Part shown: positions 17,882 to 40,628 of the stretch, one piece after another
How the letters are laid out: every line of letters starts with the position of its first letter
Position numbering within the stretch: position 1 is the stretch's first letter
NCBI GenBank assembly: GCA_017623455.1
Contig: JAGAPA010000012.1
Location: 982-64,981, forward strand
Origin: Clostridia bacterium
GTDB taxonomy: Bacteria; Bacillota; Clostridia; Christensenellales; Pumilibacteraceae
Direction: 5' to 3'
Length of the DNA stretch: 64,000 bases
The notes under the pieces: model-generated
What the model saw: only the letters and a program-made list of their open reading frames with translations
What the model was told of the DNA's origin: nothing
Databases searched by the model: none
Position numbers and translations under genes: made by a program

Positions 17882-18457
17882 TTATGTAAATAAATTAAGA
17901 ATACCAAAGCTTAGGCATAAAACAATATTAACGATAAGACAAATTAACGCTATTACACCTGCATTTATAAGATACTCTTCCGTTATCCAATCTTTGCATA
18001 ACGTGCGTTTTTCGCTGTTATTCAGCAAATATAAAACCTCAAGCAAAATACAAAACAACAGTTCCGCCACGCACACAATAAGCGACGGCAAAAAAGCTTT
18101 AAGCCCAAAATACACCATTATTACCGCCATACGGTGAAAAACCTCATACGCACGGTAACAAAGAAGAATAACAGCAAGTTTGCAAGTTATTTTGTTAGCC
18201 TTTGACAAAACGAGCAATACAATATATAATATCGCGCTCACAAACACGCTTACAACAATACCGCCTCCGTCCACGTCTGATAGATATACAAAATACACAT
18301 TGCCCGACGTTTCAAATACCGTTTGTACGTTACCACTCAGAGCAACAATGCAACCCAGCACCCCTCCGACGATAATCAATACATTGATAAATATTACCGT
18401 TTTAAGATTTTTAGAAATGAAATTTTTTACGTCAACCTTGATATTATATAAATCCAT
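17882..18457 (-). CDS. Polytopic membrane protein, possibly SpoIIM-like
   Basis: About five TM helices. The N-terminal layout (charged lead, then a long G-rich helix) resembles SpoIIM. This rests on topology only. Confidence 0.35.
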   Translation of the reverse strand: MDLYNIKVDVKNFISKNLKTVIFINVLIIVGGVLGCIVALSGNVQTVFETSGNVYFVYLSDVDGGGIVVSVFVSAILYIVLLVLSKANKITCKLAVILLCYRAYEVFHRMAVIMVYFGLKAFLPSLIVCVAELLFCILLEVLYLLNNSEKRTLCKDWITEEYLINAGVIALICLIVNIVLCLSFGILNLFT

Positions 18458-18800
18458 ACGAATTTATATTCGGTAAAGCTTTTGAATTATGCATCAAAAC
18501 CTGCTTTTTAAGTAAAAAAATAAATTTTTTATTATTAACCTTGCCCGTTTTCCAACAAAGCTTGGCGTATCTTTGTTGCATATCTTGCTCTAAAAATGCT
18601 TTTGCAATGGCATTGGACACACTCTTTTCTATACTATTTGCTTTTATATCAAACCTTTTTGCAACCTCAAAATACACTTCGTTTAACCTTAAATCTTTTG
18701 AGCACAGTATCTTCAATATTTCAAAACAGTACTTATAACCTTTTATGTTTGGTCTTATTTTATTTTCCAATAATACCGATTGTATAATCTTTCCGTTCAT
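18444..18800 (-). CDS. Stand-alone Spo0A C-terminal (DNA-binding) domain protein
   Basis: ...IKGYKYCFEILKI...EVYFEVAKRFDIKANSIEKSVSNAIAKAF resembles the Spo0A effector domain (HIKGYQYL...VERAIRHAI). There is no receiver domain. Confidence 0.55.
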   Translation of the reverse strand: MNGKIIQSVLLENKIRPNIKGYKYCFEILKILCSKDLRLNEVYFEVAKRFDIKANSIEKSVSNAIAKAFLEQDMQQRYAKLCWKTGKVNNKKFIFLLKKQVLMHNSKALPNINSYGFI

Positions 18801-18916
18801 ACTCTAAATATACTACTTATACACGGGCATAATAAATAAAACTTTGTTTTACTTTGGCGTTTCTTAACGATAAAAAGCACCCCAAATCCATAAAATAGAT
18901 TTGAGATGCAATATCA

Positions 18917-20554
18917 TTATTCAATATTTACAATAAACAACTCCGAGCCACGTTCTGTTCCAAATTTATTTGCATAGTTTAACGTTGCGATTACGTATAA
19001 TTTTCCATTACTCTCTACCGCGCAAGGATAATGACAAGCCGTTGCGTTTCCTCTTTCTGTATCCATGTCAAAAAGAACAGCTTTTTCGGTCATTTTAATA
19101 GAATTTTTCTCTGAAAAATATACAACAAGACGACTTCTATCAAACTTATCTACGTTTGCAACCAAATAATTCCTACCGTCTTTTAACGTTCCAGCGTAAA
19201 TTTTAGAATTAACGTAAGGAATATCGTGAGCATACGCCTCACTCCAACTTTCTCCAAAATTCTCTGATTCGTAAACAATAGGCACTTTACGCCTATCATT
19301 GCGGTTAAACATATATAATTTATCCGCACATTCTATAACCGTAGTTTCGGGATGAACAAGTTTTTCTCCATCCGCTAAATCTCCGTTTTGCGCAACCTTT
19401 ACCAATCGCCATTCCACGTCAAGCTTTCCATTATCAGAAATAAGCACTGCAGGGGTTATTGGAAATCCATCAAGTTCTCCCACTCTTCCTGGCAATATAA
19501 GTTTTCCATTAGATAATTTTATTACATTTGTGTTAAGTTTGAAAGGAATAGGGCGCGACCATAGCTTTATGAATTGATCAGTATTTTCATCTAAAACGTA
19601 CAAATCCAACGAATGAATATGATCGGGCGCAACCATTTGATTGAGAAACATATATAATTTACCGTCACCAATTCCGTATACGGGTGGACAAAATAGAATT
19701 TTTCCACTCTTATCTTCGGCTATTATTTCACTATTAATCCAAGTTCTTCCACCATCATACGAACGTTTTTCTATAATTGGGGTATAACCAATAAGTTCTT
19801 TTTTTACACAATTATACCAAGACGCGTATAAAACCCCTTTAAACTCAATTATTGCGCTTTCATGTAAAAACGCGAATTTATCGTCGGGAATTGATACGGA
19901 AACTCTTTCTATTTTAGGCGATACGTCTTGCAAATCACCGCTTAAAAAACTCATAGCGTCCATTTTTGACGTAAGTAGGCAGTCGTTAAGGTCGTAAAAC
20001 GGCAAAAACACTTTATTTTTATTTTTTTCCCTAAACTCGGTGGGCGCACATCCTACTATTTTAGAGAAAATTTCAGTAAAGTATCCTAAATTATTAAATC
20101 CACATTCTTGCGCTATTATAGAAATTTTATCAACTGAAGAAATAAGTAATTTAACAGCCTTCTCCATTCGTTTTTCGTTTCTATACTCGCTTATGGTTTT
20201 ATCGGTTTTCTTCTTGAACACGTGACAAAGATAGTAATAACTAACGTTAAGCCGTTTTGCAATTTCTTCCACGCTTAAATCTTCGCTTAAATTTTCATTG
20301 ATAAAGCGCTTTATATCTTTTACAATATCCACGTCCACGTTTTCGCGCGCGTTTTTTACAATATCAATAATTTCGCCAAGCGTATTTTCATCCCTACTTT
20401 CGCCGTTTTCAAAACACCTAATTAACTCGTCAAGTTTTGCATAGTCAATCCCAACGCTTTTAATACAATTATAGCCAAAAAAATCGAAAACCTCAGATAT
20501 TGGCGAGCCTTCAGCCTTATCTAATAAAATTTTTGCCAGATCAATACTTTTCAT
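18917..20554 (-). CDS. AraC-type HTH domain fused to a C-terminal BNR/sialidase-like beta-propeller
   Basis: The AraC HTH lies at about residues 80-180 (LSVEEIAKRLNVSYYYLCHVFKK...GFNNLGYFTEIFSKIVGCAPTEFR). Asp-box motifs are SYDGGRTW and SENFGESW. HESAIIEFKGVLYASWY is typical of PF13088-like sialidase folds. Confidence 0.7.
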   Translation of the reverse strand: MKSIDLAKILLDKAEGSPISEVFDFFGYNCIKSVGIDYAKLDELIRCFENGESRDENTLGEIIDIVKNARENVDVDIVKDIKRFINENLSEDLSVEEIAKRLNVSYYYLCHVFKKKTDKTISEYRNEKRMEKAVKLLISSVDKISIIAQECGFNNLGYFTEIFSKIVGCAPTEFREKNKNKVFLPFYDLNDCLLTSKMDAMSFLSGDLQDVSPKIERVSVSIPDDKFAFLHESAIIEFKGVLYASWYNCVKKELIGYTPIIEKRSYDGGRTWINSEIIAEDKSGKILFCPPVYGIGDGKLYMFLNQMVAPDHIHSLDLYVLDENTDQFIKLWSRPIPFKLNTNVIKLSNGKLILPGRVGELDGFPITPAVLISDNGKLDVEWRLVKVAQNGDLADGEKLVHPETTVIECADKLYMFNRNDRRKVPIVYESENFGESWSEAYAHDIPYVNSKIYAGTLKDGRNYLVANVDKFDRSRLVVYFSEKNSIKMTEKAVLFDMDTERGNATACHYPCAVESNGKLYVIATLNYANKFGTERGSELFIVNIE

Positions 20555-20745
20555 ATACGCCTCCGTTGTTTACTTCATAATAACACAACTAGACCTAAAA
20601 ATCTATAACTAAATTGTTCAATTTTATCTATTCGCATTTACAATGCTTTATTTTAGTGGTATAATAGGACTATATTCTAAGTTTTTCGTTATACAGTTAA
20701 AAATTTAGCGATTTTATATGAATTTATTGTAAGCGAGGATAGTTT

Positions 20746-21100
20746 ATGTACATACTAAATTCAACCTCTCAAAACAATTATAATTTTCCCGCACGCTTTC
20801 ATTCCTCGTCAAATTATCACGAGCAAGAAAACATTAATCACGTGAAAGGCATGAGTTCATACCAAATTTTAGCAATAATAGATGGGAAAGACACGGTTGA
20901 ACACAATGGTAAAACTTTTCCATTACACAAAGGTTGCGCTTTCTTTACTGCGCCCTCTACACCCGTGAAATATACAAACGAGGGCGGATTAATAAGTATT
21001 TTGTTACGGCTAGGGGAAATGCTATAAACGAGATTTGCCAAACAAATAAAATTAATGTCAATTATAAAGTAAAACACGGTAAGTTAATACACTTACCGTG
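20746..21100 (+). pseudogene. Truncated and frameshifted remnant of an AraC regulator, paralogous to the gene at 30242-31024
   Basis: The 93-aa ORF aligns with residues 1-90 of the 30242 gene (MYILNST...SYQIL...EHNG...PL.KGCAFFTAP..P.KYTNE.GLISI). Similarity continues in another frame (NAINEICQTNK versus CAIQEICNKFE). It then runs into the terminator, and no HTH domain is present. Confidence 0.65.
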
Positions 21101-21104
21101 TTTT
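21071..21104. terminator. Bidirectional intrinsic terminator downstream of GH2-A
   Basis: Hairpin AAAACACGGTAAGT-TAATAC-ACTTACCGTGTTTT. Confidence 0.6.
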
Positions 21105-21150
21105 AATAAGACAAACTATACAATTTTGTATCGTTATTTCATAAAAAACT

Positions 21151-23562
21151 TTATTCTTCAGCAACGGCTTTAATATTAAACGTTGCGCCCGCAAGTTCGT
21201 TGTTATACACCGTCAAAGAGATTTTTCCTGCCTTTTTTGTACGGATTACGGCAAGCGCTCTGCCCTTAAACACGTGGCACTTGTTGCTTGTATAATCATC
21301 TTCGTTGCAAGGATTTGCACTATAGATTCCCAGAAGCTCTCCTCCCCAAACCTTACATTCAATCTCGCCTTCGTAGTCGGTACATACTCTGCCGTTTTTA
21401 TCGGTAACAGTAATATCCACGTAACAAAGATTTCTGTTGTCTGCCTTAATTGTTTTAAGCTCTGAGGAAAGGTTGATTTGCGAGGCTTTATCGCAGGTTT
21501 CAAGTTTGTAAGAAGCGCTAACGCTACCGTTTCTATAAGCAATAGCTTCTATATAACCTTTTATATAAACAGTTTCTAATGACGCAATAGCCTTTTTAGG
21601 CACACTTTCGCCTATCTTCTCACCGTTTACAAACCACTCTACCTTGTCAGCGCTTGTGTAAGTTTCTACCTTGATAGGTTTTCCCACATATTTATCGTCA
21701 TACGTCCAGCTCTCGTTTACGTCGTAAAAATGCCAATGCGTTCCCGAAAAACCTTCACCAAAATGCTCGGGGTGTGTGGTAAAAATTCTAATTTCCGTAT
21801 CTTTACCCCAAACAGCCTGTCTGAAGTATGATTGCGGACGGCGATTGCAACACATATCCAAGTCGCCCTGATAACAGCTTCTCCAGGGATAATACAAAGG
21901 TCTTATCTTTCCCACCTTTCCATCTCTTGCCCATTGAGCTAAGCCTGTTCCGACTTCTCCCATATTATCATAAGCAGTCCAAACAAAATCACCTAAAATA
22001 TAGTTTCTCTCATTGATTTTTTGCCAAGCATCATACGCATCAATGGCGTGAGTTTCGCTGCCCCAAATAGGCTTGTCGGGATAATAACTGTACTCATAAT
22101 CATAAGCCTCTATTTCGTAGTTTAATCCCGTAATATCCAAGGGCTTTTGAAAGCCTTTTGCGTTTTTAGTTAAGCCTTCCCATCTATTTTCCGACTTAAA
22201 TCGATTAAATCTCTCTTCTATATATTGTTTATAATCTTCAGGATCACTTTCTTCAGCAAGCGGCCATCTTGCAAACCCTTTTTGCATAGCAGACGTTACA
22301 AAGTTTTTATCGTCATATTTTCTAATCTCGTCAGACAATGCTTCCGACCACTCTGCCGTACCTTTAGTTCCGTTTATTTCAAATAATTCATTTCCAATAG
22401 AATAAGATATTACGCAAGGATGATTTCTATCTCGTAAAACCATATAAGAAACGTCCCTTATTGCCCAATCACTGAAAAACACGTTATAATCCCTAAAACA
22501 TCTTGCCGTTGTTTTATTCCACTTGTCAAACGCTTCATCCATTACAAGCATACCAAGTTTATCACAAACTTCCAAAAAGGCAAGCGATGGTGGGTTATGA
22601 GCACATCGTATTGCATTATATCCGGCATCTTTCAATCTTTTTATTTTTCTATACTCTGCATCAGGAAACGCGCTTGCACCCAAAACAGCGTGATCGTGAT
22701 GTACACATCCGCCGTAAAGTTTGATAAATTGTCCGTTAAGCAAAAGTCCGTTTTTAACGTCTGCCGTAACCGTTCGGATTCCAAACGCATTTTCACTCTC
22801 ATCTTCAACCTGACCGTTTATTACAATTTCGGTTTTAAGCGTATAAAGATTGGGGGTGTCCAAATCCCAGAGCTGTGCATTGTTTATGGTTATAACACGC
22901 TCAAATTGCTTTTTACTATTCCGTGTTACGGTAATAGCTTCGCTCTCGCTACGCACTTCCGCTCCGTCGTATAATACGGTAAACTTAATATCCGCTTTTG
23001 TGTCGATATCTGACGTTACTACATAACGCAACCTGACGTCAGCATTTCCGTTTTCTATCTTATTTGTAGCGATATACATATCTCTCGGCTCTATTCTAAC
23101 CTTGCCACCTTCCCACAAAAAGACGTCACGATATATTCCATTACCCGTATACCAACGAGTTGAAAAAGGTAAAGGACGAGTTTCGATAACAAGCTTATTT
23201 GTTCTGTTTTTAAGAACACAATCAGTAAGATCCACGAGATATGGCGTATATCCGTACGGATGCATACCCATAAAGTTTTCGTTAAAGGTTACGTACGTAA
23301 GCATATACGCTCCGTCAATATCCAAAACGTAATGCTTATTTTCTTCAAACGTAAGATACTTAACGTACTTTCCGTTTGTGTCGGGATAAAAACCGTTATT
23401 CCTATCCCCACTGTCATACGTTACTTCGTCACCTATATTGGCTTTACGCTTATGCTTAATCTGATAATCGTGGGGCAAATCAACCTCTTCGTATTTTTCA
23501 TACTCAAACCCCGGATTTGCATTGTAAAATTTCCAATCTTTAGAAATACATATTTTCTTCAT
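21151..23562 (-). CDS. Glycoside hydrolase family 2 protein (GH2-A), cytoplasmic
   Basis: N-terminus WKF...DLPHDYQI. TIM-barrel motifs are IRCAHNPPS and NHPCVISYSIGNE (acid/base Glu). No signal peptide. The RBS AGAGGG lies 22 nt after the activase stop. Confidence 0.85.
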   Translation of the reverse strand: MKKICISKDWKFYNANPGFEYEKYEEVDLPHDYQIKHKRKANIGDEVTYDSGDRNNGFYPDTNGKYVKYLTFEENKHYVLDIDGAYMLTYVTFNENFMGMHPYGYTPYLVDLTDCVLKNRTNKLVIETRPLPFSTRWYTGNGIYRDVFLWEGGKVRIEPRDMYIATNKIENGNADVRLRYVVTSDIDTKADIKFTVLYDGAEVRSESEAITVTRNSKKQFERVITINNAQLWDLDTPNLYTLKTEIVINGQVEDESENAFGIRTVTADVKNGLLLNGQFIKLYGGCVHHDHAVLGASAFPDAEYRKIKRLKDAGYNAIRCAHNPPSLAFLEVCDKLGMLVMDEAFDKWNKTTARCFRDYNVFFSDWAIRDVSYMVLRDRNHPCVISYSIGNELFEINGTKGTAEWSEALSDEIRKYDDKNFVTSAMQKGFARWPLAEESDPEDYKQYIEERFNRFKSENRWEGLTKNAKGFQKPLDITGLNYEIEAYDYEYSYYPDKPIWGSETHAIDAYDAWQKINERNYILGDFVWTAYDNMGEVGTGLAQWARDGKVGKIRPLYYPWRSCYQGDLDMCCNRRPQSYFRQAVWGKDTEIRIFTTHPEHFGEGFSGTHWHFYDVNESWTYDDKYVGKPIKVETYTSADKVEWFVNGEKIGESVPKKAIASLETVYIKGYIEAIAYRNGSVSASYKLETCDKASQINLSSELKTIKADNRNLCYVDITVTDKNGRVCTDYEGEIECKVWGGELLGIYSANPCNEDDYTSNKCHVFKGRALAVIRTKKAGKISLTVYNNELAGATFNIKAVAEE

Positions 23563-23584
23563 TTTTTTGCCCTCTATAATAAGA

Positions 23585-24472
23585 TTAACTTACTTTTATA
23601 TCAACAATTCTTCTAATAATCTCTACGGCTCTTTGTCTGTCTTCTTCCGTTGGAACAAGTTGAGGCAACGTGTTTTTAACACCTATCGCTTCATATTTTG
23701 ACGAGGCGTAATTGTGATACGCCAAAACTTTTATAGCAGTTACGTTTTTAAGCGACTTTATAAATTCTGCGATCTTTTCGATTTGATTATCATTATAAGC
23801 CGGAACGTACGGAATACGAATTTCAACCTTTGCTCCCATATCGTCTAAATATTTCAAATTCTCTAATATAGCTTTATTACTTACTCCTGTACACCTTTTA
23901 TGCACGTCTTCATCAAACGCTTTTACGTCGTATAAAAACGTATCCACATATGGAAGAACGCTGTCTATCGCAGTTTTGCTTACACATCCGCAAGTATCAA
24001 CAGCTGTATTTATTCCGTGTTCTTTAAGTTTTTTCAAAAGCTCGGTACAAAACTCGTACTGAAGTAAACACTCGCCTCCCGACAACGTTACTCCGCCGTT
24101 AGAGTCCTTATAAAAGTCAATATCTTGCAATAGAATTGGCAATAAGTCGTCCACGCTATACTCTTTGCCGTACAGCTTGATAGCATCAAAATAACATTCT
24201 TCCTCACACTTTCCGCACGCAATACAGTTTTCGCGAATAAAAACGTGTTTATCGTCTTTTATTGCGTGAGCGCCATTAGGGCAAACCCTTACACAGTTGC
24301 CACATTTCACGCACTTATGTTGATATATTGAAAGTTCGGACTGTTTTTTCAAACTTTCGGGGTTATGACACCACACGCAGGATAGCGGACAACCTTTGAA
24401 AAACACAGTTGTTCGCACTCCATCGCCATCGTGAACGGCAAACCTTTTAATTTCAAAAATATTTGCTTTCAT
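23585..24472 (-). CDS. Glycyl radical enzyme activating enzyme (radical SAM)
   Basis: CPLSCVWC is the CxxxCxxC cluster. There are two ferredoxin-like motifs, CVKCGNCVRVCP and CIACGKCEEEC, plus GGVTLSGGE. The gene lies 11 nt downstream of the GRE. Confidence 0.9.
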   Translation of the reverse strand: MKANIFEIKRFAVHDGDGVRTTVFFKGCPLSCVWCHNPESLKKQSELSIYQHKCVKCGNCVRVCPNGAHAIKDDKHVFIRENCIACGKCEEECYFDAIKLYGKEYSVDDLLPILLQDIDFYKDSNGGVTLSGGECLLQYEFCTELLKKLKEHGINTAVDTCGCVSKTAIDSVLPYVDTFLYDVKAFDEDVHKRCTGVSNKAILENLKYLDDMGAKVEIRIPYVPAYNDNQIEKIAEFIKSLKNVTAIKVLAYHNYASSKYEAIGVKNTLPQLVPTEEDRQRAVEIIRRIVDIKVS

Positions 24473-24483
24473 ACTCCACTCTC

Positions 24484-26715
24484 TTATATAAGCGCTTCAG
24501 CCTGTTTTATAAATCCTTCCTGCTCGTGAGGCGGAATATTGTTCCAAAGCACGTTCCAGCCTGCAACTCTTATTTGTAAGTCCGCATACTTTTCGGGATT
24601 CTTTTGTGCATCTCTTAAGGTTTCCGCATCAACTATGTTTATTTGCAAAGCATGACCGCCTCGATTAAAGTAGGTTTTAACTAAGCCGTACAACGCTTGC
24701 AACCCGTCATCACCCTTTACGGCAGAGGGAAGTACACCCAAATCCAAGCATACGTCACCCACGCAGTTCGTTGCATCAACCTTAGTAACGGTAAGAATTG
24801 CCGCGGTTGCTCCTTCCCTATTTTGTCCAACGCAAGGTGAGGAATTTTTTGCAAGCTCTTCGCCTTTAAGTCTGCCACTAGGAAGTGATGCCGTCTTTTT
24901 GCCCTGCTCGTAGTACTGTCTTGCCACGTGATACCCTGCGTTAAACCAGTATCCACCACGGTTTGACGCGTTTTTTCTGTGGTTAAGATAGCCACTTATG
25001 CTCTCATCGATATCCACTGCTAAGCTATCGGGAAAATCCTTGTTATTTCCGTATTTTTCCCTATCGTTTAATAGTTTTTGACGGAAAAGCTCGTGACCTT
25101 CGAAGTTGTTATCGATAATGCTTACAAATTCTTCAAGCGTGAGTTCTTTTCTGTCATACACGTACTTCTTTAGCATTGTAAGTGAATCCACAACGTCAGC
25201 AATAGCACCAAACATCATAAACGACGAGCACGAAACAGACTTTCTTGCTATAGCATCCAAGCCTTTTTCCAAGCAATCCGGTATTGTTGCGGAAAGCATT
25301 GGCAACGGATTAATTTCCGCAAGATAATCTTCGTAGCCGTTAACTATTTCTACCGTTTTGTCAATTAAGGCAAACAACTGTTTTTTATACTCGGCATACA
25401 AATCATCAAACGTTTTATACTCGTAGGGTGCCGGGCTTTTTTGTAGAATAAACGATTGGTCAATTCCGTCGTACCCACCGTGAAGAACAAATTCTAAAGG
25501 CTTTACAAGGTTAATATAATTCATTCCTGTTCCAAAGTCGCCCTGCTTAGCATACTCGTAACAGCCTTTTACGTCGCAAAGTCTTGCTTCTTCTTCCGTT
25601 ACGCCCAAATTCTTAATTAGCGACTGTCTGATTAGTTTATCACCGACAAGCACAAAGCTGTTTCTTCCACGCCTTATCATATCCAACACTTTAAGCATAA
25701 ACTTTTCGGGCGTAGACTCAGCAACTTTTATTTGAACTTTGGGGTTAAAAATTCCCATTTTGTCATATACGTCTACAAAAATATAGGAAAGTTCGTTGAT
25801 TACGCTACTTCCGTCTGCGTTTTCTCCACCAAGATATACGGGCTGTCCCCAATAGTTGCCAATAGCAGTGAATTGCAAGAAAAAGTAAGCAATCTCTTCT
25901 CTTATCTGCTCTTCGCTCACACCGTTTTCGATATCGTGCTTATAGAATTTGTAAAGTTGACGGTCAAAATTACACAACGAACGAACCTGCAGTCCTTCTA
26001 TATGCTCGCATATCATAAAATAGATATAAATCAAAAGTAAGGCTTCATAAAAAGTCTTGGGGGGATTTTGAGAAATATTGTCAAGAGCTACAGCCAATTT
26101 TTCAGAACCTTTAGTATTCTTTGCAAGTAAGCTCATACGCTTTACAATACCAATAATAGCTTCGTATTCTATTTTGATTGACTCGTAAAAAGCTTCTTTT
26201 TCTTCGCTAAGTTTGCCTTTTTGCTTGCGGATATTTTCACTATCGGCAAGTATTCCACTAAAACCAAGGTCAAATAGTCTATCCCAAATAGGAACGCTAT
26301 GATCGTAGTCAAGCCAAATTGTTGCAACGCCTTTTCTTTGAAGATTAATTCTCTCTGCATGATTTTCGGGAATTACGTTTTGCAAAATTTCGTTTCTCCA
26401 CATATCAGATAAGGTAACTCTCAGCAATCTATCCGTAGAATTGATTGCAGGAAAAATATCCCTACTGTCGCAAGAAATTCTTGTGTTTTTCAAAACAAAC
26501 TCAAGCCCCCTTGCTTTTCGTATGCAATGCGGTAAATGCTCGTACTTCTTGTCGTTTTCAAATATTCCCTGTTTTATATCGTCGCCGTTCATTCCCGTGT
26601 TTTCGTCAAAGATTTCATCTCTGCGAATATATCGCATAAATGGATCAAATGGCTTTTTTGTATCGTGATACTTATTAGAAATGTACTCGTAGTCAGCATC
26701 TTTTATATAAATCAT
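24484..26715 (-). CDS. Glycyl radical enzyme (GRE-A), pyruvate formate-lyase superfamily, substrate unknown
   Basis: The C-terminal glycyl loop is LQIRVAGWNVLW (Gly codon 24559-24561). The Cys loop is DVKGCYEY (Cys codon 25561-25563). Length is 743 aa, with a GGAGG RBS. Confidence 0.85.
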   Translation of the reverse strand: MIYIKDADYEYISNKYHDTKKPFDPFMRYIRRDEIFDENTGMNGDDIKQGIFENDKKYEHLPHCIRKARGLEFVLKNTRISCDSRDIFPAINSTDRLLRVTLSDMWRNEILQNVIPENHAERINLQRKGVATIWLDYDHSVPIWDRLFDLGFSGILADSENIRKQKGKLSEEKEAFYESIKIEYEAIIGIVKRMSLLAKNTKGSEKLAVALDNISQNPPKTFYEALLLIYIYFMICEHIEGLQVRSLCNFDRQLYKFYKHDIENGVSEEQIREEIAYFFLQFTAIGNYWGQPVYLGGENADGSSVINELSYIFVDVYDKMGIFNPKVQIKVAESTPEKFMLKVLDMIRRGRNSFVLVGDKLIRQSLIKNLGVTEEEARLCDVKGCYEYAKQGDFGTGMNYINLVKPLEFVLHGGYDGIDQSFILQKSPAPYEYKTFDDLYAEYKKQLFALIDKTVEIVNGYEDYLAEINPLPMLSATIPDCLEKGLDAIARKSVSCSSFMMFGAIADVVDSLTMLKKYVYDRKELTLEEFVSIIDNNFEGHELFRQKLLNDREKYGNNKDFPDSLAVDIDESISGYLNHRKNASNRGGYWFNAGYHVARQYYEQGKKTASLPSGRLKGEELAKNSSPCVGQNREGATAAILTVTKVDATNCVGDVCLDLGVLPSAVKGDDGLQALYGLVKTYFNRGGHALQINIVDAETLRDAQKNPEKYADLQIRVAGWNVLWNNIPPHEQEGFIKQAEALI

Positions 26716-26846
26716 AACAACCTCCGTTTGATTTTACGATTTTTTCTAATGAAATTATACGATATTACGAAAAAAAAGTAAATGATAAAAATAAAACACT
26801 TGACGAAAACAAAACAATATTATAAAATTATATAAGAGGTAATTTT

Positions 26847-27614
26847 ATGAAAAACAAATGGTCAAATATAATAATAACAGGCATAACGCTTGCTTTACAC
26901 GTATCTACAAACAGCGTTAAATATCACACAAACCGTCCTAATCACGGATTCGTTATCAACAATGAAACAAGCGAAAAAGATTACTACTTTTCGGACGGAA
27001 CGGTTATGCATACGGGTCCAAACGAAATTTTTTATCTTCCAAAAGGATCTACTTATTCTATTAAAGAGAACGAAAAAGGCACTTGCTACGCCATAAACTT
27101 TAACGCAGATATTGAAGATAAGCCGTTTTGTATAAAACTGAGGAACAACGAGGATTTGCTTAAGAACTTCAAAAGAGCTTGCGTTGAGTGGAAAAAACAA
27201 TCCGCTCTTAAAAACTCGTATGCCTTAAGAGCGGTTTATGACTTTATTATACAAGCAAGAAAAGAACTTGATAAGGATTATTTATCAAAAGAAAGCTTGG
27301 GAATTATTGCGCCGGCTGTGAACGTGATTACTACGGATTTTACAAACCCAAATCTTACGATTTCCTACCTTGCTTCTCTATGTAAAATAAGCGACGTTTA
27401 TTTTAGGAAAATCTTTATGAATAAATTTGGAATATCACCTAAAAACTATATAATTCAAAAGAGAATTGAGTATGCAAAGCAACTAATTGACAGCAAACAG
27501 TTTTCGATGTTAGAAGTCGCTCAATCGTGCGGATACGAAGAACAATGCCATTTCTCGCGCGAGTTTTCCAAGCGCGTGGGAATGTCGCCACAGGAATACA
27601 AAAAGCAAAATTAA
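26847..27614 (+). CDS. AraC family regulator (type 1), divergent from GRE-A
   Basis: AraC HTH tail ...VAQSCGYEEQCHFSREFSKRVGMSPQEYKK. RBS AAGAGG. It is a paralog of the gene at 33389. Confidence 0.85.
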   Translation: MKNKWSNIIITGITLALHVSTNSVKYHTNRPNHGFVINNETSEKDYYFSDGTVMHTGPNEIFYLPKGSTYSIKENEKGTCYAINFNADIEDKPFCIKLRNNEDLLKNFKRACVEWKKQSALKNSYALRAVYDFIIQARKELDKDYLSKESLGIIAPAVNVITTDFTNPNLTISYLASLCKISDVYFRKIFMNKFGISPKNYIIQKRIEYAKQLIDSKQFSMLEVAQSCGYEEQCHFSREFSKRVGMSPQEYKKQN

Positions 27615-27622
27615 AATACAAG

Positions 27623-27655
27623 AAAAGACGGTAAACCATTCAGTTTACCGTCTTT
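27623..27655. terminator. Bidirectional intrinsic terminator (homologous to 21071-21104)
   Basis: Hairpin AAAAGACGGTAAAC-CATTCA-GTTTACCGTCTTTT. Confidence 0.6.
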
Positions 27656-27701
27656 TAACAAAACAAACTATACAATTTTGTGTCGTTATTTCATAAAAAC
27701 C

Positions 27702-30095
27702 TTATTCTTCGTCAACGGCATTTATATTAAACGTTGCGCCCGCAAGCTCGTTGTTATAAACAGTTATAGAAAGATTTCCTGCCTTTTTAGTGCGAATTAC
27801 CGCAAGCGCACGACCTTTGAATACGTGACACTTATTACCTGTATAATCGTCCTCGTTACAGGGATTTGCGCTATGTATTCCAACAAGCTCTCCTCCCCAA
27901 ACCTTACACTCTATCTCGCCTTCGTAGTCGGTGCATAATCTGCCCTTACTGTCGGCAACTGTTATATCCACGTAACAAAGATTTCTGTTGTCTGCCTTAA
28001 TCGTTTTAAGCTCTGAGGAAAGATTAATTTGCGAAGCTTTATCGCAAGTTTCTAACCTATAAGACGAGTATGCCTCTCCACCTCTATACGTGACAGCTTC
28101 TATATAGCCTTTTTCGTAAACCGTTTCTATTGATGCAATATTTTTTTCAGGTACGCTTTCGCCAATCTTTTTGCCGTTTACAAACCATTCCACTTTTTCT
28201 GCACTTGTGTACGTTTCCGCCTTTATTGGTCTTCCCACGTACTTATCGTCATACGTCCAGCTCTCGTCAACGTCATAAAAATGCCAATGAGTTCCACTGA
28301 ATACTTCGCCAAAATGCTCGGGGTGCGTGGTGAAAATTCTGATTGGGGCGTTTTCTTCCCAGATAGACTGTCTGAAGTACGATTGGGGCTTACGGTTCAT
28401 ACACATATCCAAGTCGCCTTGATAACAGGTTCGCCAAGGATATTCGAACGTCCTAATTCCGGGAACGTATCCATCTCTGAGCCATGAACTTTTACCTGCG
28501 CCAACCTCTCCCATATTATCGAACGCCGTCCAGTTAAAGTCGCCCAAAACGTAATCGTTTTCCATAACCTCTTTCCAAGAGTCATACGCGTCTATCGAAA
28601 AGGTTTCGCTACCCCAAACAACTCTATTAGGATACATTTCGTGGTCTACGTGATAATTTTCATAGTTGTAATTAATTCCAATCAAATCCAGCGGTTTTTC
28701 GTATTCTTTACAAATCTCGTTGACCTCTGCGTAAGTTTTGTTATTAAGTTTGTTTTTTAGATATTGTCTATAATCGTCGGGATCTATTGATTCGGATTTT
28801 GGATTAGTTGCAAACCATTTCTGAACTCCTGACGTTACGGGTCTTGTTTCGTCGTGCTGTTTTACGTACTGAGTGAGAAGATTTGCATACTTTTCCGCAC
28901 CGTTCTGACCGTTAATTTCGGTAATCTCGTTTCCTATAGAGTAAGAGAACACGCAGGGGTGATTACGTTCGCGCTGTACCATATACGAAATATCTCGCTC
29001 GCACCATGCCTCGAAGAAAAGGTTATAATCCCTCGGTCTTTTTCTGAACTGCCAAGTATCGAATGCCTCGTCCATTACTATCATTCCAAGCCTGTCGCAA
29101 ACTTCTAAAAACGCTAACGAGGGTGGATTGTGGGCGCAACGCAAGGCATTTAAGCCTGCGTCTTTAAGTCTTTTAACCTTTCTATACTCCGCATCGGGGT
29201 ACGCCGCAGAGCCTAAAATTCCGTGGTCGTGGTGAATACATCCACCTTTGAGTTTAATTTGCTTACCGTTAAGCAATAGTCCGGTATTTACACCTATGCT
29301 GATAGTGCGGATTCCAAATGTGTTTTCGCTTTGATCTACAAGCTCGCCCTTTACGTAAATATCAGTTTTAAGTGTATAGAGGTTAGGGTTGTCCACGTCC
29401 CAAAGATGTGCGTCGTTTACTGTGATAATGTGCTCAAACTGCTCTTTTTTACCTTTTTTTACGGTTAAATTCAGCGATTTTGACAATACCTCGTTACCCT
29501 CGTACAAAACGGTAAACTTTACTTCAGCCTTTGTATTTTTATCCGAATTTATCCAATAGCGAAGTCTAACCTCGGCATCGTTTCCTTCAATCTTGTTGGT
29601 GGAAATAAACATATCCCAAGGCTCTATTCTAACCTTGCCGCCTTCCCACAAAAACACGTCGCGGTATATTCCGTTTCCACTATACCAACGCGTACTGTGC
29701 TCTAAAGGAAAGGTTTCTATTGCAAGTTTATTATTCATGCCTTTTAGTATAAAGGGCGTAAGATTAACAAGATAGGGCGTATATCCATAAGGATGTTTTC
29801 CAACCATATTATCGTTGAACGTAACGTACGTCATCATATACGCTCCGTCTATATCCAATATATAATTCTTATTTTCCTCAAAGGTAAGATACTTAACGTA
29901 CCTGCCAGGCGTGTCGGGATAATATCCGTTTCCACTATTACCACTATGTGGAGTCACCCAATCCCCCACGTTCGCCGTACGCTTTTGCTTTATTTGATAG
30001 TCGTGTGGTAAGTCTACGTCGACGTAATTCTTAAACGGACGACACAACTCTGTGCTTGAAAACTTCCAATCTTTAGAAATACACCTTTTCTTCAT
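27702..30095 (-). CDS. Glycoside hydrolase family 2 protein (GH2-B), cytoplasmic paralog of GH2-A
   Basis: It is collinear with GH2-A along its whole length. Motifs are LRCAHNPPS and NHPCVFSYSIGNE. RBS is GGAGGAG. Confidence 0.85.
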   Translation of the reverse strand: MKKRCISKDWKFSSTELCRPFKNYVDVDLPHDYQIKQKRTANVGDWVTPHSGNSGNGYYPDTPGRYVKYLTFEENKNYILDIDGAYMMTYVTFNDNMVGKHPYGYTPYLVNLTPFILKGMNNKLAIETFPLEHSTRWYSGNGIYRDVFLWEGGKVRIEPWDMFISTNKIEGNDAEVRLRYWINSDKNTKAEVKFTVLYEGNEVLSKSLNLTVKKGKKEQFEHIITVNDAHLWDVDNPNLYTLKTDIYVKGELVDQSENTFGIRTISIGVNTGLLLNGKQIKLKGGCIHHDHGILGSAAYPDAEYRKVKRLKDAGLNALRCAHNPPSLAFLEVCDRLGMIVMDEAFDTWQFRKRPRDYNLFFEAWCERDISYMVQRERNHPCVFSYSIGNEITEINGQNGAEKYANLLTQYVKQHDETRPVTSGVQKWFATNPKSESIDPDDYRQYLKNKLNNKTYAEVNEICKEYEKPLDLIGINYNYENYHVDHEMYPNRVVWGSETFSIDAYDSWKEVMENDYVLGDFNWTAFDNMGEVGAGKSSWLRDGYVPGIRTFEYPWRTCYQGDLDMCMNRKPQSYFRQSIWEENAPIRIFTTHPEHFGEVFSGTHWHFYDVDESWTYDDKYVGRPIKAETYTSAEKVEWFVNGKKIGESVPEKNIASIETVYEKGYIEAVTYRGGEAYSSYRLETCDKASQINLSSELKTIKADNRNLCYVDITVADSKGRLCTDYEGEIECKVWGGELVGIHSANPCNEDDYTGNKCHVFKGRALAVIRTKKAGNLSITVYNNELAGATFNINAVDEE

Positions 30096-30241
30096 ATTCT
30101 CCTCCTTTTCTTCATTTTCTGTTTATTCGGTTTACATTACGCATTTTTAATGCTATAATAAGATTATATTCCAAAATTTACCGTTTGTAAATGGAAAATA
30201 TTACATTCATATATGAAAATATTACAATTCGGGAGCTTTTA

Positions 30242-31024
30242 ATGTATATCTTAAATTCAACGAACAATGATAAAATCTATCCTGCCGTTTTACTCACTGC
30301 CTCAAACAGACACGTTCAAGAAACCAAGAACTACAGTAGCGGCATGCGCAGTTATCAGATTCTGATTATTACGGAAGGCAGAGGCACGCTTGAACATAAC
30401 GGTTCTTATTATCCTTTGAAAAAGGGTTGCGCGTTCTTTACCGCTCCAAATATTCCCATAAAATACACAAACGAGGACGGTCTTATCAGTATTTTTGTAA
30501 CCGCCAATGGCTGTGCTATACAAGAAATTTGCAACAAGTTTGAGCCAAGCGGTTTTGCATTTTTCGAAAGTGTTAACACAGACAAAATATTAAGTGATAT
30601 AAACACTATCGAACAAGAATTCTGCAGTCAAAAAAGACAAAGTAAGCTGTCCATTCTTGCTTACGCTTTCTTTTTGGAATTTTTTGAATCAAACGCTTAT
30701 AATAACGGAAACTATCTTGCAAAGATAATGGACTTTATTGACAAGAATTACACGAAACAAATCACGCTTGAAGAAATTGCTAAGGAATGTGGAGTATCCG
30801 TATCAAAGCTTTGCTATGACTTTAAGACTACGTACGGTATTACAGTTTTTAGCCACGTTATAAACTTAAGACTGAATTATGCGCGCTCTTATTTACTATA
30901 CGCGTCCGAACTTCGCGTAAAAGACGTTGCTGCTGCGAGCGGATTTGAGGACGTAAGTTATTTTTGCAAGGCTTACAAAAACAAATACGGCGTATCTCCA
31001 AGCATGGATATGCAAAAGAATTAA
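30242..31024 (+). CDS. AraC family regulator (type 2)
   Basis: ATG at 30242 is preceded by GGGAG and matches the start of the decayed paralog. The track start at 30191 has no RBS. The HTH tail is ...AAASGFEDVSYFCKAYKNKYGVSP. Confidence 0.8.
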   Translation: MYILNSTNNDKIYPAVLLTASNRHVQETKNYSSGMRSYQILIITEGRGTLEHNGSYYPLKKGCAFFTAPNIPIKYTNEDGLISIFVTANGCAIQEICNKFEPSGFAFFESVNTDKILSDINTIEQEFCSQKRQSKLSILAYAFFLEFFESNAYNNGNYLAKIMDFIDKNYTKQITLEEIAKECGVSVSKLCYDFKTTYGITVFSHVINLRLNYARSYLLYASELRVKDVAAASGFEDVSYFCKAYKNKYGVSPSMDMQKN

Positions 31025-31071
31025 AATAAAAACACGTTACCCTGCTGTATTTTGGATAACATGTTATTTTA

Positions 31072-33231
31072 TTAGTCGTTAAGTTCTGATTGTTTTATAA
31101 ACGCGTCCTGTTCAGCTTTTGATAAGTTTACGAAATATGCATTCCATCCACACACTCTTACTTGTAGGTTTTTATAATTTTCGGGATGGGCTTGAGCCTC
31201 TTTTAGCATTTTGGAGTCAAATACGTTTCCGTGCATTGCAAAACCGCCCTTTGCAAAATACGTTTTTAATATCCCGTAAAATGCGTTAAGTCCGTTATCT
31301 CCGCTAACGGCAGACGGATGTAAAACCACGTCTAATACCGAGCCTGTTGGGAATAACGAATGATCGAACGAGGTTACCGAATTGATAAGCGATGTTATAC
31401 CCGTCTTATCCATTCCTATGCTTGCACAAAGGTTTTTTGACAACGGCTCGCCCAATTTTCTTCCGTCGGGCGTTGCCAACGTTTTTGCGCCGATATGCAC
31501 GTAATGGTCAATGGTAAAACAAGCGGGCTTATACACTCCTCCTCTACCGTTTGGGCGATTTAAGAGCAAACTTGAACAATACTCGGCAAATTCCACCGTA
31601 AATTTATCCGCAACAGCGTTGCTGTTTCCATACTTTTCATCTATCGCTCTTGCTTTTAGCTGTAATTCCTCATTGCCTTCCCAATTATTTCTTAGAATTT
31701 CGCCAAGTTTATCAAAAGATACTATTTTTTCATCAAACACAAACTTTTTAACAGCGCAAATACTATCCACTAAGGATGCTAGACAATAAAAGTACAAGGA
31801 CGTATTATTATACTTTGCTCCACCCTCATATACGTCTACACCTCTTTTTATGCTTTCGTCATACTGACACGAAAGCATTGGGTCGGGGTTGATTTCACCG
31901 TAATAACCCTCTATTGCATTAATAAAATGCACGCACCTGTCCGTCATATTTGCTATTTGTTTTTTCACTTCACGAACAAAATCCTCGTACGTAGAAATTT
32001 TACCAACAGGCGCGCCCATAACTTTATTATTTCTATGGTCCACGCCGTTATTGAAAATATACTCTATTGCTTTTCCAAGATTTATTCCACCATTTCCGGT
32101 ACAGCCTATCTCCACTCCCCACACGGCAGGCTCGTAACAACCGATAGGCACGTAGTTTACAGCATCTTTGTGACTTATTCCCACACGTTCTAGCGACTTT
32201 ATAGCAACGTGGTCATTGACAAGCACAAAGCTGGAATTTCCGCCTCTTATGCACGAAAGTACAAGCATAATAAATTCACGAGGGGTTTTATCCGACACTC
32301 TGATATGAATTTTTGGACTGTAAATATTAAGCTCGTTGTACGTTTCGACGATAAGATAGGACAGCTCGTTTACGATACTGTTCTCATTTTCGTCTAAGCC
32401 TGCAAGGCAAAACGGTAAATCATAAGGTACTTTTGCGCTCCAAAACTTAAAGAGAAAATATTTGAGCATTTCCTTGATCTGCTCTTTTGTATACACTCCC
32501 TCTTCTATATCCTTTTTATAGAACGGATATAAAAGCGCATCTACAATACCAAGCGTTCTTACTCTTGTTCCACCCACGTACTCGTGCAAGAAAAAGTATA
32601 AAACGAGAAGTTGCATTGCTTCGTAAGTGTTTTGTGGCTTATCCTTTGCTATATTACGCAACGCCGTAGCATTATCCGTATTATAAGGCTCGATAGCGTC
32701 GGCAAGACGGTGCGCAACCGTTTGCATTGACTTAAGCATTATTTTACACGACAGATAAAAATCCTTTTGTTTATCGGTTAATCCGCCTTTATTCTCAGCT
32801 TCCTCTACCCTTTGCAAAAGACCTGAAATTCCAACGTTTAACAATAGCTTAGAATTTGGAGAGGTATGTCCAAAGTCAGAATGTGCATGATATGCTCCGC
32901 AACCTTGCCACGCTTCGTATATATCGCCAGCCTCTTGCGATAAATGCTCGTCAATAACCTGCTTTTGCCACTTAGAACGCTGTTTAGCCATTATAGAACT
33001 ACCCTGAAGCTTATCTTGAAAAATGTTAAATTTATCAACCGCAATTAGAGCATTAGATGCAATAAACTCAAAAGTTTTGGCTTTTATAATAGCTTTTGAC
33101 GAATATTGATTTTCGATTCCCTCGACAGCTTTTACCACATCGTCGGGATTTAGTCCGCTATTTTCAAGCCACTCGGTTTGCGTAAATTCCTTTTCCAAAA
33201 CGGATCTGCTATTTTCAAAAGACAATTGCAT
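31072..33231 (-). CDS. Glycyl radical enzyme (GRE-B), divergent paralog of GRE-A, with no adjacent activase
   Basis: The glycyl loop is LQVRVCGWNAYF (Gly codon 31147-31149). The Cys loop is VPIGCYEP (Cys codon 32137-32139). Length is 719 aa, RBS AAGGAGAG. Confidence 0.85.
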   Translation of the reverse strand: MQLSFENSRSVLEKEFTQTEWLENSGLNPDDVVKAVEGIENQYSSKAIIKAKTFEFIASNALIAVDKFNIFQDKLQGSSIMAKQRSKWQKQVIDEHLSQEAGDIYEAWQGCGAYHAHSDFGHTSPNSKLLLNVGISGLLQRVEEAENKGGLTDKQKDFYLSCKIMLKSMQTVAHRLADAIEPYNTDNATALRNIAKDKPQNTYEAMQLLVLYFFLHEYVGGTRVRTLGIVDALLYPFYKKDIEEGVYTKEQIKEMLKYFLFKFWSAKVPYDLPFCLAGLDENENSIVNELSYLIVETYNELNIYSPKIHIRVSDKTPREFIMLVLSCIRGGNSSFVLVNDHVAIKSLERVGISHKDAVNYVPIGCYEPAVWGVEIGCTGNGGINLGKAIEYIFNNGVDHRNNKVMGAPVGKISTYEDFVREVKKQIANMTDRCVHFINAIEGYYGEINPDPMLSCQYDESIKRGVDVYEGGAKYNNTSLYFYCLASLVDSICAVKKFVFDEKIVSFDKLGEILRNNWEGNEELQLKARAIDEKYGNSNAVADKFTVEFAEYCSSLLLNRPNGRGGVYKPACFTIDHYVHIGAKTLATPDGRKLGEPLSKNLCASIGMDKTGITSLINSVTSFDHSLFPTGSVLDVVLHPSAVSGDNGLNAFYGILKTYFAKGGFAMHGNVFDSKMLKEAQAHPENYKNLQVRVCGWNAYFVNLSKAEQDAFIKQSELND

Positions 33232-33388
33232 TACATTCTCTCCTTATAAATGAAAATTCGTTTAACTTAGTATTATTGTATCAAAAGAATACGAAAAACT
33301 CAATAACTATTCAATACCGCTTGAATTATTCGAAACTAAAATCACTCAAAATACTTGACTTATCCATAACATTTGGTATAATTAGATT

Positions 33389-34174
33389 ATGAAATTTTTA
33401 GAAAAAGACAACGTAATATCTCAAATTACACTTGCAATTTTGCTGAAAGCAGGCAGAGGAACTCCCGTTCACAAAAACAGACCAACGCACGGACTTGCAT
33501 ACAACGTCAACCATACATGTATCTATAAGTTTGACAACGGTAAAGCGTTGGAAGTAAAATCGGGGGATTGTATCTACTTACCAAAAACATCCAACTACAC
33601 CGTTATAAAATGCGAAACCAATTCCAACAGCTCTGTTTATGCGATAAACTTCAACCTTACCAGCGAAGAAATATTCGAACCTCAGCTTTTCCATACGCGA
33701 GGTAAAAATGAGGTTGAAGCATTGTTTAATAAAGCTTCTAACGCTTGGCTAAACAAGAACGTGGGGTTTTATGAAGAGTGTTTTTCAGATCTTTATAGAA
33801 TAATTAAAATTCTAAAAAAAGAAAACTCGTCTTACGCTCCGCAATCGAAAATTCTTGAAACGTTAGCGCCTGCGCTTAAGTACATCAACGAAAATTACAC
33901 ACAAGAAAACATTAAACTATCCGTTCTTGCCCACCTTTGCAACGTAAGCGAACCATACCTACGACGGCTTTTTAATAACGCATTTTCTACTTCGCCTGCA
34001 GTTTATATAAGGAATTTACGTATCAATTATGCTAAAGAACTGATAAAATCGGGGGAATATACTATCACGGAAATTGCTATTATATCGGGGTTTTGCGACG
34101 TTTCGTATTTTAGCAGAGAATTTAGGAAAGCAACGGGTGTAAACCCTAAAGATTATGCCAAAGTCAAGCAATAA
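33389..34174 (+). CDS. AraC family regulator (type 1), divergent from GRE-B
   Basis: HTH tail ...IAIISGFCDVSYFSREFRKATGVNPKDY. Its N-terminus is paralogous to the gene at 26847 (HKNRPTHG versus HTNRPNHG; VYAINFN versus CYAINFN). Confidence 0.85.
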   Translation: MKFLEKDNVISQITLAILLKAGRGTPVHKNRPTHGLAYNVNHTCIYKFDNGKALEVKSGDCIYLPKTSNYTVIKCETNSNSSVYAINFNLTSEEIFEPQLFHTRGKNEVEALFNKASNAWLNKNVGFYEECFSDLYRIIKILKKENSSYAPQSKILETLAPALKYINENYTQENIKLSVLAHLCNVSEPYLRRLFNNAFSTSPAVYIRNLRINYAKELIKSGEYTITEIAIISGFCDVSYFSREFRKATGVNPKDYAKVKQ

Positions 34175-34204
34175 AAAAGGCTACGCTACAACTATATTAA
34201 AGAG

Positions 34205-35405: not shown

Positions 35406-35432
35406 TTATACTGATATAATCAGTCTTGCTAA

Positions 35433-40609: not shown

Positions 40610-40628
40610 AAAAAACAAAGGAGTTATA

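Follow-up and report, generated by a model that had tools for sequence, protein, structure and literature searches.

A glycyl radical enzyme of an uncharacterised clade, encoded with its activase and a GH2 glycosidase in a Clostridia genome, and the recurrent coupling of this clade to carbohydrate-active enzymes

Why should a glycyl radical enzyme be encoded in tight succession with a glycosidase? The question is raised by three adjacent genes in a stretch of 64,000 nucleotides from contig JAGAPA010000012.1 of a Clostridia bacterium (assembly GCA_017623455.1; hereinafter, the window), which encode a glycyl radical enzyme (GRE1), its radical-SAM activating enzyme (AE) and a glycoside hydrolase (GH) of family GH2 (GH2a) (Table 1). 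The first-pass annotation of this DNA proposed a pathway in which an imported glycoside is cleaved in the cytoplasm and one of the products undergoes radical chemistry. Comparative analysis shows that carbohydrate-active enzymes (CAZymes) are recurrent partners of the GRE1-type clade, both in operons and in fusion proteins. A functional link between this clade and glycan or glycoside processing is thus plausible, even though GH2a itself is a recent add-on.

Operon anatomy and the identity of GRE1

The three minus-strand genes are separated by gaps of 11 nt (24473-24483) and 22 nt (23563-23584), and each is preceded by a purine-rich ribosome-binding site (RBS), namely GGAGG for GRE1, GAGAGTGGAG for AE and AGAGGG for GH2a; the positions, sizes, strand, gaps and RBSs are exactly as first annotated. 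The operon terminator (21105-21070) begins 46 nt past the GH2a stop codon, and a terminator scan found no strong terminator inside the operon. With a predicted promoter at the 5' end, no strong internal terminator and a terminator at the 3' end, the signals are consistent with a single transcription unit, and this tight gene array is very probably co-transcribed. A weak promoter-like match is located ahead of GH2a (23604-23576); promoter-like matches overall are no commoner than in shuffled sequence. Control of the surrounding genomic island by a riboswitch or another RNA element was rejected on the basis of an Rfam scan of positions 18000-35500, which detected no RNA element at E <= 0.1. The identical operon layout has been assembled independently from at least four ruminant gastrointestinal metagenome samples.

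GRE1 is matched by the Pfam PFL-like (291 bits) and Gly_radical (PF01228, 79.8 bits) domains and contains both loop motifs noticed at first inspection, the glycyl loop QIRVAGWNVLW and the cysteine loop GCYEY. The AlphaFold (AF2) model (pLDDT 84.5, pTM 0.87) is a confident GRE barrel that, in a Foldseek comparison, aligns with more than 50 GRE chains with TM-scores of 0.76-0.82; eliminases and isomerases are all at about 0.8, with 19-25% identity. Judging by this model, the fold is equidistant from all solved GRE classes. Membership in the GRE superfamily is apparent from the C-terminal domain with the RVxG motif, the ten-stranded barrel fold with C385 in the Cys loop that faces the Gly loop, and the cognate radical-SAM activase. 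The catalytic residues are the glycyl G719, the thiyl C385, E387 of the Cys-x-Glu (CXE) motif and H139, the last of which aligns with H164 of glycerol dehydratase (GD), H165 of YbiW and H156 of PflD. The combination of C385-Y-E387 and H139 is the motif set of the eliminase/isomerase class; the roles of Cys-x-Glu and His in C-O-cleaving GRE eliminases and isomerases are described in a superfamily review of June 2026 (PMC13450708).

None of the NCBIfam GRE families is reached by GRE1, which scores about 179-315 bits against cutoffs of 678-1150. The models for CutC, the sulfonate enzymes HpsG, HpfG and IslA, and the aryl-acetate decarboxylases together yield 179-233 bits (cutoffs 1000-1150), with 184 bits for CutC (cutoff 1050) and 211-233 bits for the sulfonate enzymes (cutoff 1000). 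The closest relative in the PDB is HypD (6VXC/6VXE), which is the best match in both sequence (245 bits; about 27% identity, with no solved GRE more identical) and structure (TM-score 0.81). HypD, like GRE1, has the GRE barrel with the Gly loop and the CXE Cys loop, and the activases of both enzymes contain two auxiliary clusters. However, GRE1 is only 25-27% identical to HypD, scores 283 bits with the model NF043068 (cutoff 1100), has an N-terminal part shorter by about 45 residues, and carries GWN in the Gly loop where HypD has GYS. The sole HypD residue conserved among those compared is Y450 (Y400 in GRE1); D278 aligns with Q243, D339/F340 with G290 and a gap, and T645 with A598, whereas S334 falls where GRE1 has no segment.

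GD and 1,2-propanediol dehydratase (PD; PDB 1R8W, 5I2G) have the same C-O-cleaving 1,2-eliminase architecture (TM-score about 0.8); C433, E435 and H164 of GD correspond to C385, E387 and H139, and the tyrosine aligned with GD Y339 is present in GRE1. In contrast, S282, D447 and Y640 of GD are replaced by Q243, G397 and H596, the score with TIGR01774 (PFL2/GD) is 315.5 bits against a cutoff of 678.2, and the genes that accompany GD and PD are missing from this AraC-regulated locus. Specifically, there is no sugar transporter, microcompartment shell gene or aldehyde dehydrogenase in the 64-kb window, as the first-pass annotation had stated for the locus, and no 1,3-propanediol dehydrogenase among the genes checked at the locus.

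YbiW and PflD of 'anhydroglycolysis' (PDB 8ID7, 8ID0, 8YJO) are the sole characterised GREs acting on sugars. The C441/E443/H165 triad of YbiW matches the CXE motif and His of GRE1, and the pair formed by GRE1 and its paralogue in the same island, GRE2 (35% identity), resembles the YbiW/PflD pair (39%). The C-O scission next to a ketyl radical that these enzymes catalyse is the best mechanistic analogue for GRE1, and their scission of a ring C-O bond provides a chemical precedent (PMC13450708). Nevertheless, at 25-26% identity, YbiW and PflD are not orthologues of GRE1, and the pockets differ, with H282/S265 in place of Q243 and S662/Y617 in place of H596. Furthermore, the two enzymes use sugar phosphates delivered by the phosphotransferase system (PTS) and, in E. 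coli, are encoded next to PTS, phosphatase or aldolase genes, none of which is present in the GRE1 island.

The NCBIfam cutoffs, the PDB scores and the pocket residues together rule out assignment of GRE1 to any characterised family (GD, PD, HypD, CutC, HpsG/HpfG/IslA, the decarboxylases or YbiW/PflD), and the comparison with profile models that had been suggested at the outset, like those with the PDB and with structures, places it outside every characterised GRE cluster. Because the catalytic set is kept while the substrate positions of GD and HypD differ, GRE1 is, at the level of sequence, a genuine eliminase/isomerase-type GRE with a predicted new specificity. A sulfonate substrate, an idea that arose from Arg and Gln residues, was rejected given the lack of a match to the HpsG/IslA models and of any Arg or Gln near H139.

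AE scores 337 bits with TIGR02494 (cutoff 174) and 319 bits with the HypD activase model NF043069. The motifs CPLSCVWC, CVKCGNCVRVC and CIACGKCEEEC indicate that all three clusters are present, in agreement with the radical-SAM motif and two ferredoxin-type clusters recognised earlier. AE is the sole activase gene in the island and presumably serves GRE2 as well.

The short-GRE radiation, its gene neighbourhoods and its fusions

Close homologues of GRE1 number in the hundreds; they are about 740 aa long, about 60% identical to GRE1, all annotated as 'hypothetical', and come from uncultured animal-gut Clostridia/Oscillospiraceae. Overall, 349 species-representative genomes encode a GRE1 relative; when 1.8 billion representatives were searched exhaustively, the GREs of 680-760 aa that outscore HypD against GRE1 made up more than 140 clusters at 50% identity. 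We define this short-GRE radiation by a length of about 700-750 aa, a truncated N-terminus, the GCYE and RV(A/C)GWN motifs, and conserved H139 and R245, whereas the classical eliminases instead show GC(V/I)E and RVAGYS. Among 130 aligned representatives, H139 is found in 128, R245 in 115, Y386 in 110, W720 in 116 and N721 in 111. GRE1 and GRE2 both carry every one of the defining features, and the GRE2 pocket is different.

Comparison of 80 species-level loci encoding GRE1 relatives reveals a conserved core that consists of a divergent AraC gene (67 of the 80), the GRE, and AE (50 of the 80). Carbohydrate-type accessory genes are present in 27 of the 65 loci of GRE1 orthologues that include at least 3 kb of downstream sequence; these encode SMP30/regucalcin-type lactonases (13 loci), EamA transporters (15), SASA esterases (7) and GDSL esterases (7). 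Such genes are frequently inserted between the GRE and AE, as in the order GRE-SGL-GDSL-EamA-SASA-AE of locus L010, and their mosaic distribution over the GRE1 tree implies that the front-end genes are exchangeable. In other loci, the position behind AE is occupied by a mannosidase-type GH2 together with DUF4838 (L059) or by a GH123-like gene (L052). A sialic-acid pathway, an idea that stemmed from the SASA partners, a BNR_2-containing open reading frame (ORF) in the island and the BgaA-type GH2, was rejected because genes for a nan-type lyase, kinase or epimerase are not found repeatedly in the vicinity of GRE1 genes; the SASA domain also represents the CE6 acetyl-xylan-esterase fold.

Several additional features of these neighbourhoods deserve mention. 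A recurrent partner of about 500 aa (c12) is encoded immediately next to the GRE, on either its upstream or its downstream side, in at least five loci (e.g., L028:14060-15634), and an unannotated gene of the same size occupies the same upstream slot in L172 (3732-5228) and L173. Another recurrent partner, of about 665 aa (c68), lies between the GRE and AE in L057, whereas in L025 (12244-14232) it immediately follows the GRE. No Pfam, NCBIfam or PDB matches were detected for c12, c68 or the 900-aa N-terminal portion of one GRE fusion (P0198). Some loci (L046, L047, L050, L020, L034 and L175) show strong GRE expansion: within 10 kb on either side of the 80 GRE1 loci there are 24 extra GRE ORFs, among them tandem copies of GRE1 in L046 and L047, and four GREs are encoded inside 16 kb in L050. 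In L051 (13766-15484), a 573-aa ORF joins an EamA domain to an activase radical-SAM domain and is either a true fusion or a frameshift artefact.

The coupling to CAZymes extends to fusion proteins. Nine family-invariant GRE1 residues at aligned known pocket positions form the signature QNYWQHARW, which 20 representatives, including GRE1, match at six or more of the nine positions, some of them perfectly at overall identity of just 32-36%. Fusions account for 6 of the 19 signature-bearing representatives other than GRE1 itself and for 3 of the 109 others (Fisher p = 3e-4). The partners in the six signature-bearing fusions are AXE1, AXE1 plus SASA, SASA, a mannosidase-type GH2, a 3-keto-disaccharide-hydrolase domain and one unassigned 900-aa domain. 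That these fusions are genuine is apparent from several full-length members located on different contigs and, in one case, from an uninterrupted 1533-aa gene within a contig of 44 kb. The loci that encode them resemble polysaccharide-utilisation loci and contain GH78, GH39, GH51, a SASA-GH5 fusion, PAS-AraC regulators and more GREs. The GH2-GRE fusion is rare, being represented by two clusters at 90% identity, which rules it out as a common architecture. The GH2 module of this fusion is elsewhere joined to GH5, GH28, GH3 or GH20 modules, so that the GRE occupies a slot normally held by a CAZyme module. Among the fused GREs noted (P0167, P0168, P0176, P0178, P0186, P0198, P0223, P0278, P0285 and P0289, with contexts in L170, L175, L176 and L177), the partner domains include AXE1, SASA, GH2, GH78 and 3-keto-disaccharide hydrolase.

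Every CAZyme-GRE fusion, in the few sequences inspected by eye, starts with a signal-peptide-like or lipoprotein-like N-terminus, and the exported-looking GRE domains still keep the catalytic Gly, Cys and Glu residues. Near an AXE1-GRE fusion, an activase-like radical-SAM protein with the motif CPLHCVWC (L177:2553-3380, plus strand) contains about 25 extra N-terminal residues, MIGRREFVGTSFAWVAVEALG (RREFV...), which resemble a Tat signal; this is a single case, recognised by eye.

Full-text literature searches and the June 2026 review yielded no reports of operons or fusions that combine a GRE with a glycosidase, an esterase or a lactonase, or of exported GREs. Every characterised PFL-like GRE is listed in the review, which makes no mention of glycosidases, esterases or fusions in their context (PMC13450708). 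The observation made at the outset that none of the characterised GRE eliminases is co-transcribed with a glycosidase is therefore borne out in these sources. The GRE1-type clade, by comparison, is an uncharacterised one with distinct loop motifs and systematic CAZyme coupling.

Origin of GH2a and possible functions of the operon

All five domains of GH2a were identified with Pfam (GH2 N, Ig and TIM, DUF4982 and GH2_C5), and this architecture is the same as in the exo-beta-galactosidases BgaA, BgaD and BuGH2 (PDB 5T9A, 4YPJ, 4CU6; 199-392 bits); the specificity of other relatives (7RSK/6B6L) is undefined. The acid/base residue E392 aligns with LacZ E461 and GUS E413, and the SIGNE motif is kept. 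The probable nucleophile, E503, was identified by comparing the motif PIWGSET with PIIITEYG of GUS, the MAFFT alignment with LacZ and GUS being mis-registered in this region. The GUS N-x-K carboxylate motif was not seen at the aligned position of GH2a, where the alignment is weak. Scores of 416-426 bits with the GalA/GalB beta-galactosidase equivalogs are below the cutoff of 900; GH2a is, by its relatives, a putative enzyme of the beta-galactosidase type. As first annotated, there is no signal peptide in GH2a, the N-terminus of which is hydrophilic. Thus, GH2a is predicted to be cytoplasmic and is encoded inside a GRE operon, whereas its BgaA/BgaD/BuGH2-type relatives are standalone AraC-regulated or secreted enzymes.

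The source of GH2a is its paralogue in the same island, GH2b (68% amino-acid identity). Nucleotide homology between the two extends from 3 nt before the ATG to about 88 nt past the stop codon, including the terminator hairpin, whereas the RBS regions are unrelated to each other; by this comparison, GH2a is a promoter-less copy of the standalone GH2b that was captured behind AE in this genus. The duplicated terminators (21064-21151 and 27616-27703) differ by compensatory changes in the stem (ACACGGTAAGT/ACTTACCGTGT versus AGACGGTAAAC/GTTTACCGTCT), which indicates selection keeping both of them functional. The four closest relatives of GH2a and GH2b carry a divergent AraC2-like regulator, that is, the GH2b layout.

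The explanation that we favour, with moderate confidence, is that GRE1-AE-GH2a is an AraC-controlled catabolic operon in which GRE1 performs radical C-O cleavage of a carbohydrate-derived compound and GH2a feeds the same pathway. Under this scenario, AE would install the radical on G719, the C385 thiyl radical would take a hydrogen from a carbinol carbon, next to the hydroxyl, and E387 and H139 would act as acid-base catalysts in the loss of a vicinal oxygen leaving group, leading either to dehydration or to an ether- or ring-opening isomerisation as in YbiW/PflD. AraC1, the divergently encoded regulator, would sense the substrate. The ancestral, self-sufficient unit comprises AraC, the GRE and AE; GH2a, under the same control, would free the substrate or inducer from a beta-galactoside in the cytoplasm. 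Other lineages fill the front-end slot with lactonase, EamA transporter, acetylesterase or other GH genes. For the substrate of GRE1, a small hydroxy compound derived from carbohydrate, perhaps an anionic one, is the most likely candidate; a sugar acid or lactone is weakly hinted at by the polar residues of the pocket (His, Gln, Tyr and His) and by the lactonase partner.

Several observations weigh against this explanation. The pocket positions of GRE1 were mapped by sequence alignment alone. Across the 80 loci, no conserved downstream enzyme (aldolase, kinase or aldehyde dehydrogenase) or transporter was found that would hint at the substrate, and bare AraC-GRE-AE units among housekeeping genes are frequent in GRE1-type loci, which implies that the enzyme needs no dedicated glycosidase. 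The fusions come from another phylum with a general habit of fusing modules and with signal peptides, so that what holds for them may not hold for the cytoplasmic enzyme of Clostridia. The linkage to GH2, the conservation of which was one of the checks proposed at the outset, is essentially lineage-specific: only one of the 80 loci, L001, contains a GH2a orthologue (GRE1 93% and GH2a 91% identical), and in the reverse comparison, no GRE or AE is encoded within 8 kb of GH2a/b relatives in any of 80 metagenomic loci (27-50% identity). In a third close relative, the contig ends ahead of the GH2a slot. This limited distribution weakens the specific pathway that was proposed first. Finally, glycoside hydrolases make up about one tenth of the genes in the window, so that landing of a GH gene behind AE by chance is not improbable.

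The main rival explanation is that GH2a is a passenger, a duplicated GH2 cassette that is co-transcribed only as a result of having landed behind AE by chance and has no metabolic tie to GRE1, the substrate of which would then be a small metabolite with import and further metabolism encoded elsewhere. We consider this possible, albeit somewhat unlikely. The linkage in only 2 of 81 species-level genomes, the negative reverse comparison, the common bare units and the weak promoter-like match just upstream of GH2a all fit this possibility, as do GH2b, which shows this type of GH2 working as an independent AraC-regulated unit, and the density of AraC-plus-GH units in the genome. It does not sit well, however, with the retention of the layout in two species and several samples, with the intact catalytic residues of GH2a and the RBS of its own that it gained at the 22-nt gap, or with the repeated filling of the AE-side slot by CAZymes elsewhere and the fusion of same-pocket enzymes to CAZymes.

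A broader interpretation, which is unlikely, is that the GRE1 type (GCYE/GWN, QNYWQHARW) represents a new functional class of GREs that perform radical C-O cleavage on carbohydrates or glycosides as CAZyme-like modules, eliminating, for example, an aglycone, a methyl ether or a vicinal hydroxyl from the sugar ring. The forms from gut Clostridia would then be cytoplasmic, AraC-controlled enzymes with exchangeable front-end enzymes, GH2a being one of these, whereas Kiritimatiellota/Lentisphaerota-like forms would be fused to esterases or glycosidases, preceded by export signals, and might have an activase exported via Tat. It is quite improbable, in turn, that GRE1-type enzymes are radical lyases that act directly on glycosides or oligosaccharides, abstracting hydrogen next to a ring hydroxyl and eliminating the vicinal O-linked group (an aglycone, a methyl ether or the neighbouring sugar), with GH2a trimming the substrate or product. 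The location of the GRE domain in the slot of the second GH module of related multi-domain enzymes, the fusions with esterases and a 3-keto-disaccharide-hydrolase domain in polysaccharide-utilisation-like loci, and the ring C-O scission by YbiW/PflD would agree with such an activity, but the pockets of characterised GREs are small and buried, the bare AraC-GRE-AE units suggest a simple small-molecule substrate, and the exported appearance of the fused forms is hard to square with radical activation.

The least likely possibility is the one named as an example in the first-pass annotation, namely, that GH2a splits galactosylglycerol, such as that from forage galactolipids, which are abundant in ruminant diets, and GRE1 dehydrates the glycerol or diol as a non-orthologous dehydratase: the Cys/Glu/His triad and the tyrosine equivalent to GD Y339, the presence of GD and PD among the best structural matches, and the recurrence of GDSL-type esterases as partners are outweighed by the three replaced GD residues, the score of less than half the PFL2/GD cutoff, the missing dehydrogenase and microcompartment genes, and the failure of glycerol to explain the lactonase, EamA and acetylesterase partners or the AXE1, SASA and mannosidase-type GH2 fusions. 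From the initial proposal of a glycoside-to-radical pathway, then, the galactosylglycerol-to-glycerol route is disfavoured, whereas the accessory genes and fusions lend support to a broader link between GREs and carbohydrates.

The genomic island and the significance of the clade

The operon belongs to an island of about 15 kb (18.9-34.2 kb) between spoIVB and a Spo0A_C-like ORF in an otherwise ordinary Clostridia chromosome. The island consists of three divergent units of a regulator and catabolic genes, AraC1 with GRE1-AE-GH2a, AraC2 with GH2b, and AraC3 with GRE2; the paralogy of AraC1 and AraC3 implies tandem duplication of an AraC-GRE module (Table 1).

Table 1. Genes and predicted transcription signals of the island and additional glycosidase genes of the window
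Feature	Position	Strand	Basis
545-aa ORF, AraC helix-turn-helix (HTH; residues 71-180) followed by BNR_2 beta-propeller (259-521); island boundary	18917..20554	-	domains
Truncated AraC2-like cupin remnant, 93 aa, 60% identical to AraC2 residues 18-103	20746..21027	+	alignment
Intrinsic terminator, 15-bp stem, operon end; duplicated with GH2a from the GH2b unit	21070..21105	-	
GH2a, 803-aa predicted cytoplasmic GH2 glycosidase, BgaA/BgaD/BuGH2 exo-beta-galactosidase type; promoter-less duplicate of GH2b	21151..23562	-	domains, alignments
AE, 295-aa GRE-activating radical-SAM enzyme, CX3CX2C and two ferredoxin-type clusters	23585..24472	-	TIGR02494, motifs
GRE1, 743-aa glycyl radical enzyme, uncharacterised 'short GRE' clade; G719 in RVAGWN, C385/E387 in GCYEY, H139	24484..26715	-	domain, motif, alignment, model
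Promoter-like site TTTACT-17-TATAAT upstream of GRE1, in the 131-nt divergent region common to AraC1	26754..26782	-	consensus match only
AraC1, divergent AraC-family regulator, conserved partner of GRE1	26847..27614	+	domains, locus comparison
Terminator 3' of GH2b and of convergent AraC1; homologue of the GH2a terminator	27623..27656	-	terminator scan, nucleotide alignment
GH2b, standalone paralogue of GH2a with own RBS and regulator; ancestral layout	27702..30095	-	domains, alignment
AraC2, cupin and HTH regulator divergent from GH2b; same kind of regulator at closest GH2 relatives	30191..31024	+	domains
GRE2, 719-aa short GRE, C365/E367/H122, RVCGWN, without own activase	31072..33231	-	domains, motifs
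AraC3, divergent from GRE2, full-length AraC1 paralogue (33% identity)	33389..34174	+	alignment
GH32/43-like gene	41884-43095		
Mannosidase-type GH2, with AraC at 43944-44825	44840-47182		
GH115-like gene	54420-56315		

The GRE2-AraC3 unit adjoins AraC1-GRE1 in several species (L001, L167, L077 and L033), the activase being presumably common to both GREs. The AraC2-like remnant, which converges on the 3' end of GH2a and is preceded by a good promoter-like site (20637-20665), is probably a pseudogene scar of a rearrangement beside GH2a. The domain order of the ORF that combines an AraC HTH with a sialidase-like BNR_2 propeller is unusual for an AraC protein, and this ORF is missing from the closest relative, L001. 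The flanks of the island are at 18444-18800 and 34246-35235, one of them being a 118-aa ORF with the Spo0A C-terminal domain only. An AraC-GRE unit adjoins spoIVB in 14 of the 80 related loci, which suggests an old chromosomal position. Further units of AraC and cytoplasmic glycosidases are found in the window at 39779-47182 and 54420-56315.

Both known sugar-acting GREs, YbiW and PflD, act on phosphorylated anhydro-sugars. Members of the large short-GRE radiation occur in hundreds of species from animal guts and are repeatedly associated with lactonases, acetylesterases and glycosidases; should the proposed function prove true, radical chemistry would play a much wider part in the breakdown of carbohydrates by anaerobes than is now recognised. 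The window provides a compact, clonable test case, with GRE1, one activase, the paralogous GRE2 and three candidate sensor regulators. Once the substrate is known, hundreds of proteins now labelled 'hypothetical' in gut genomes from ruminants and poultry would receive an annotation, and a new route for a sugar derivative of plant or host origin might emerge.

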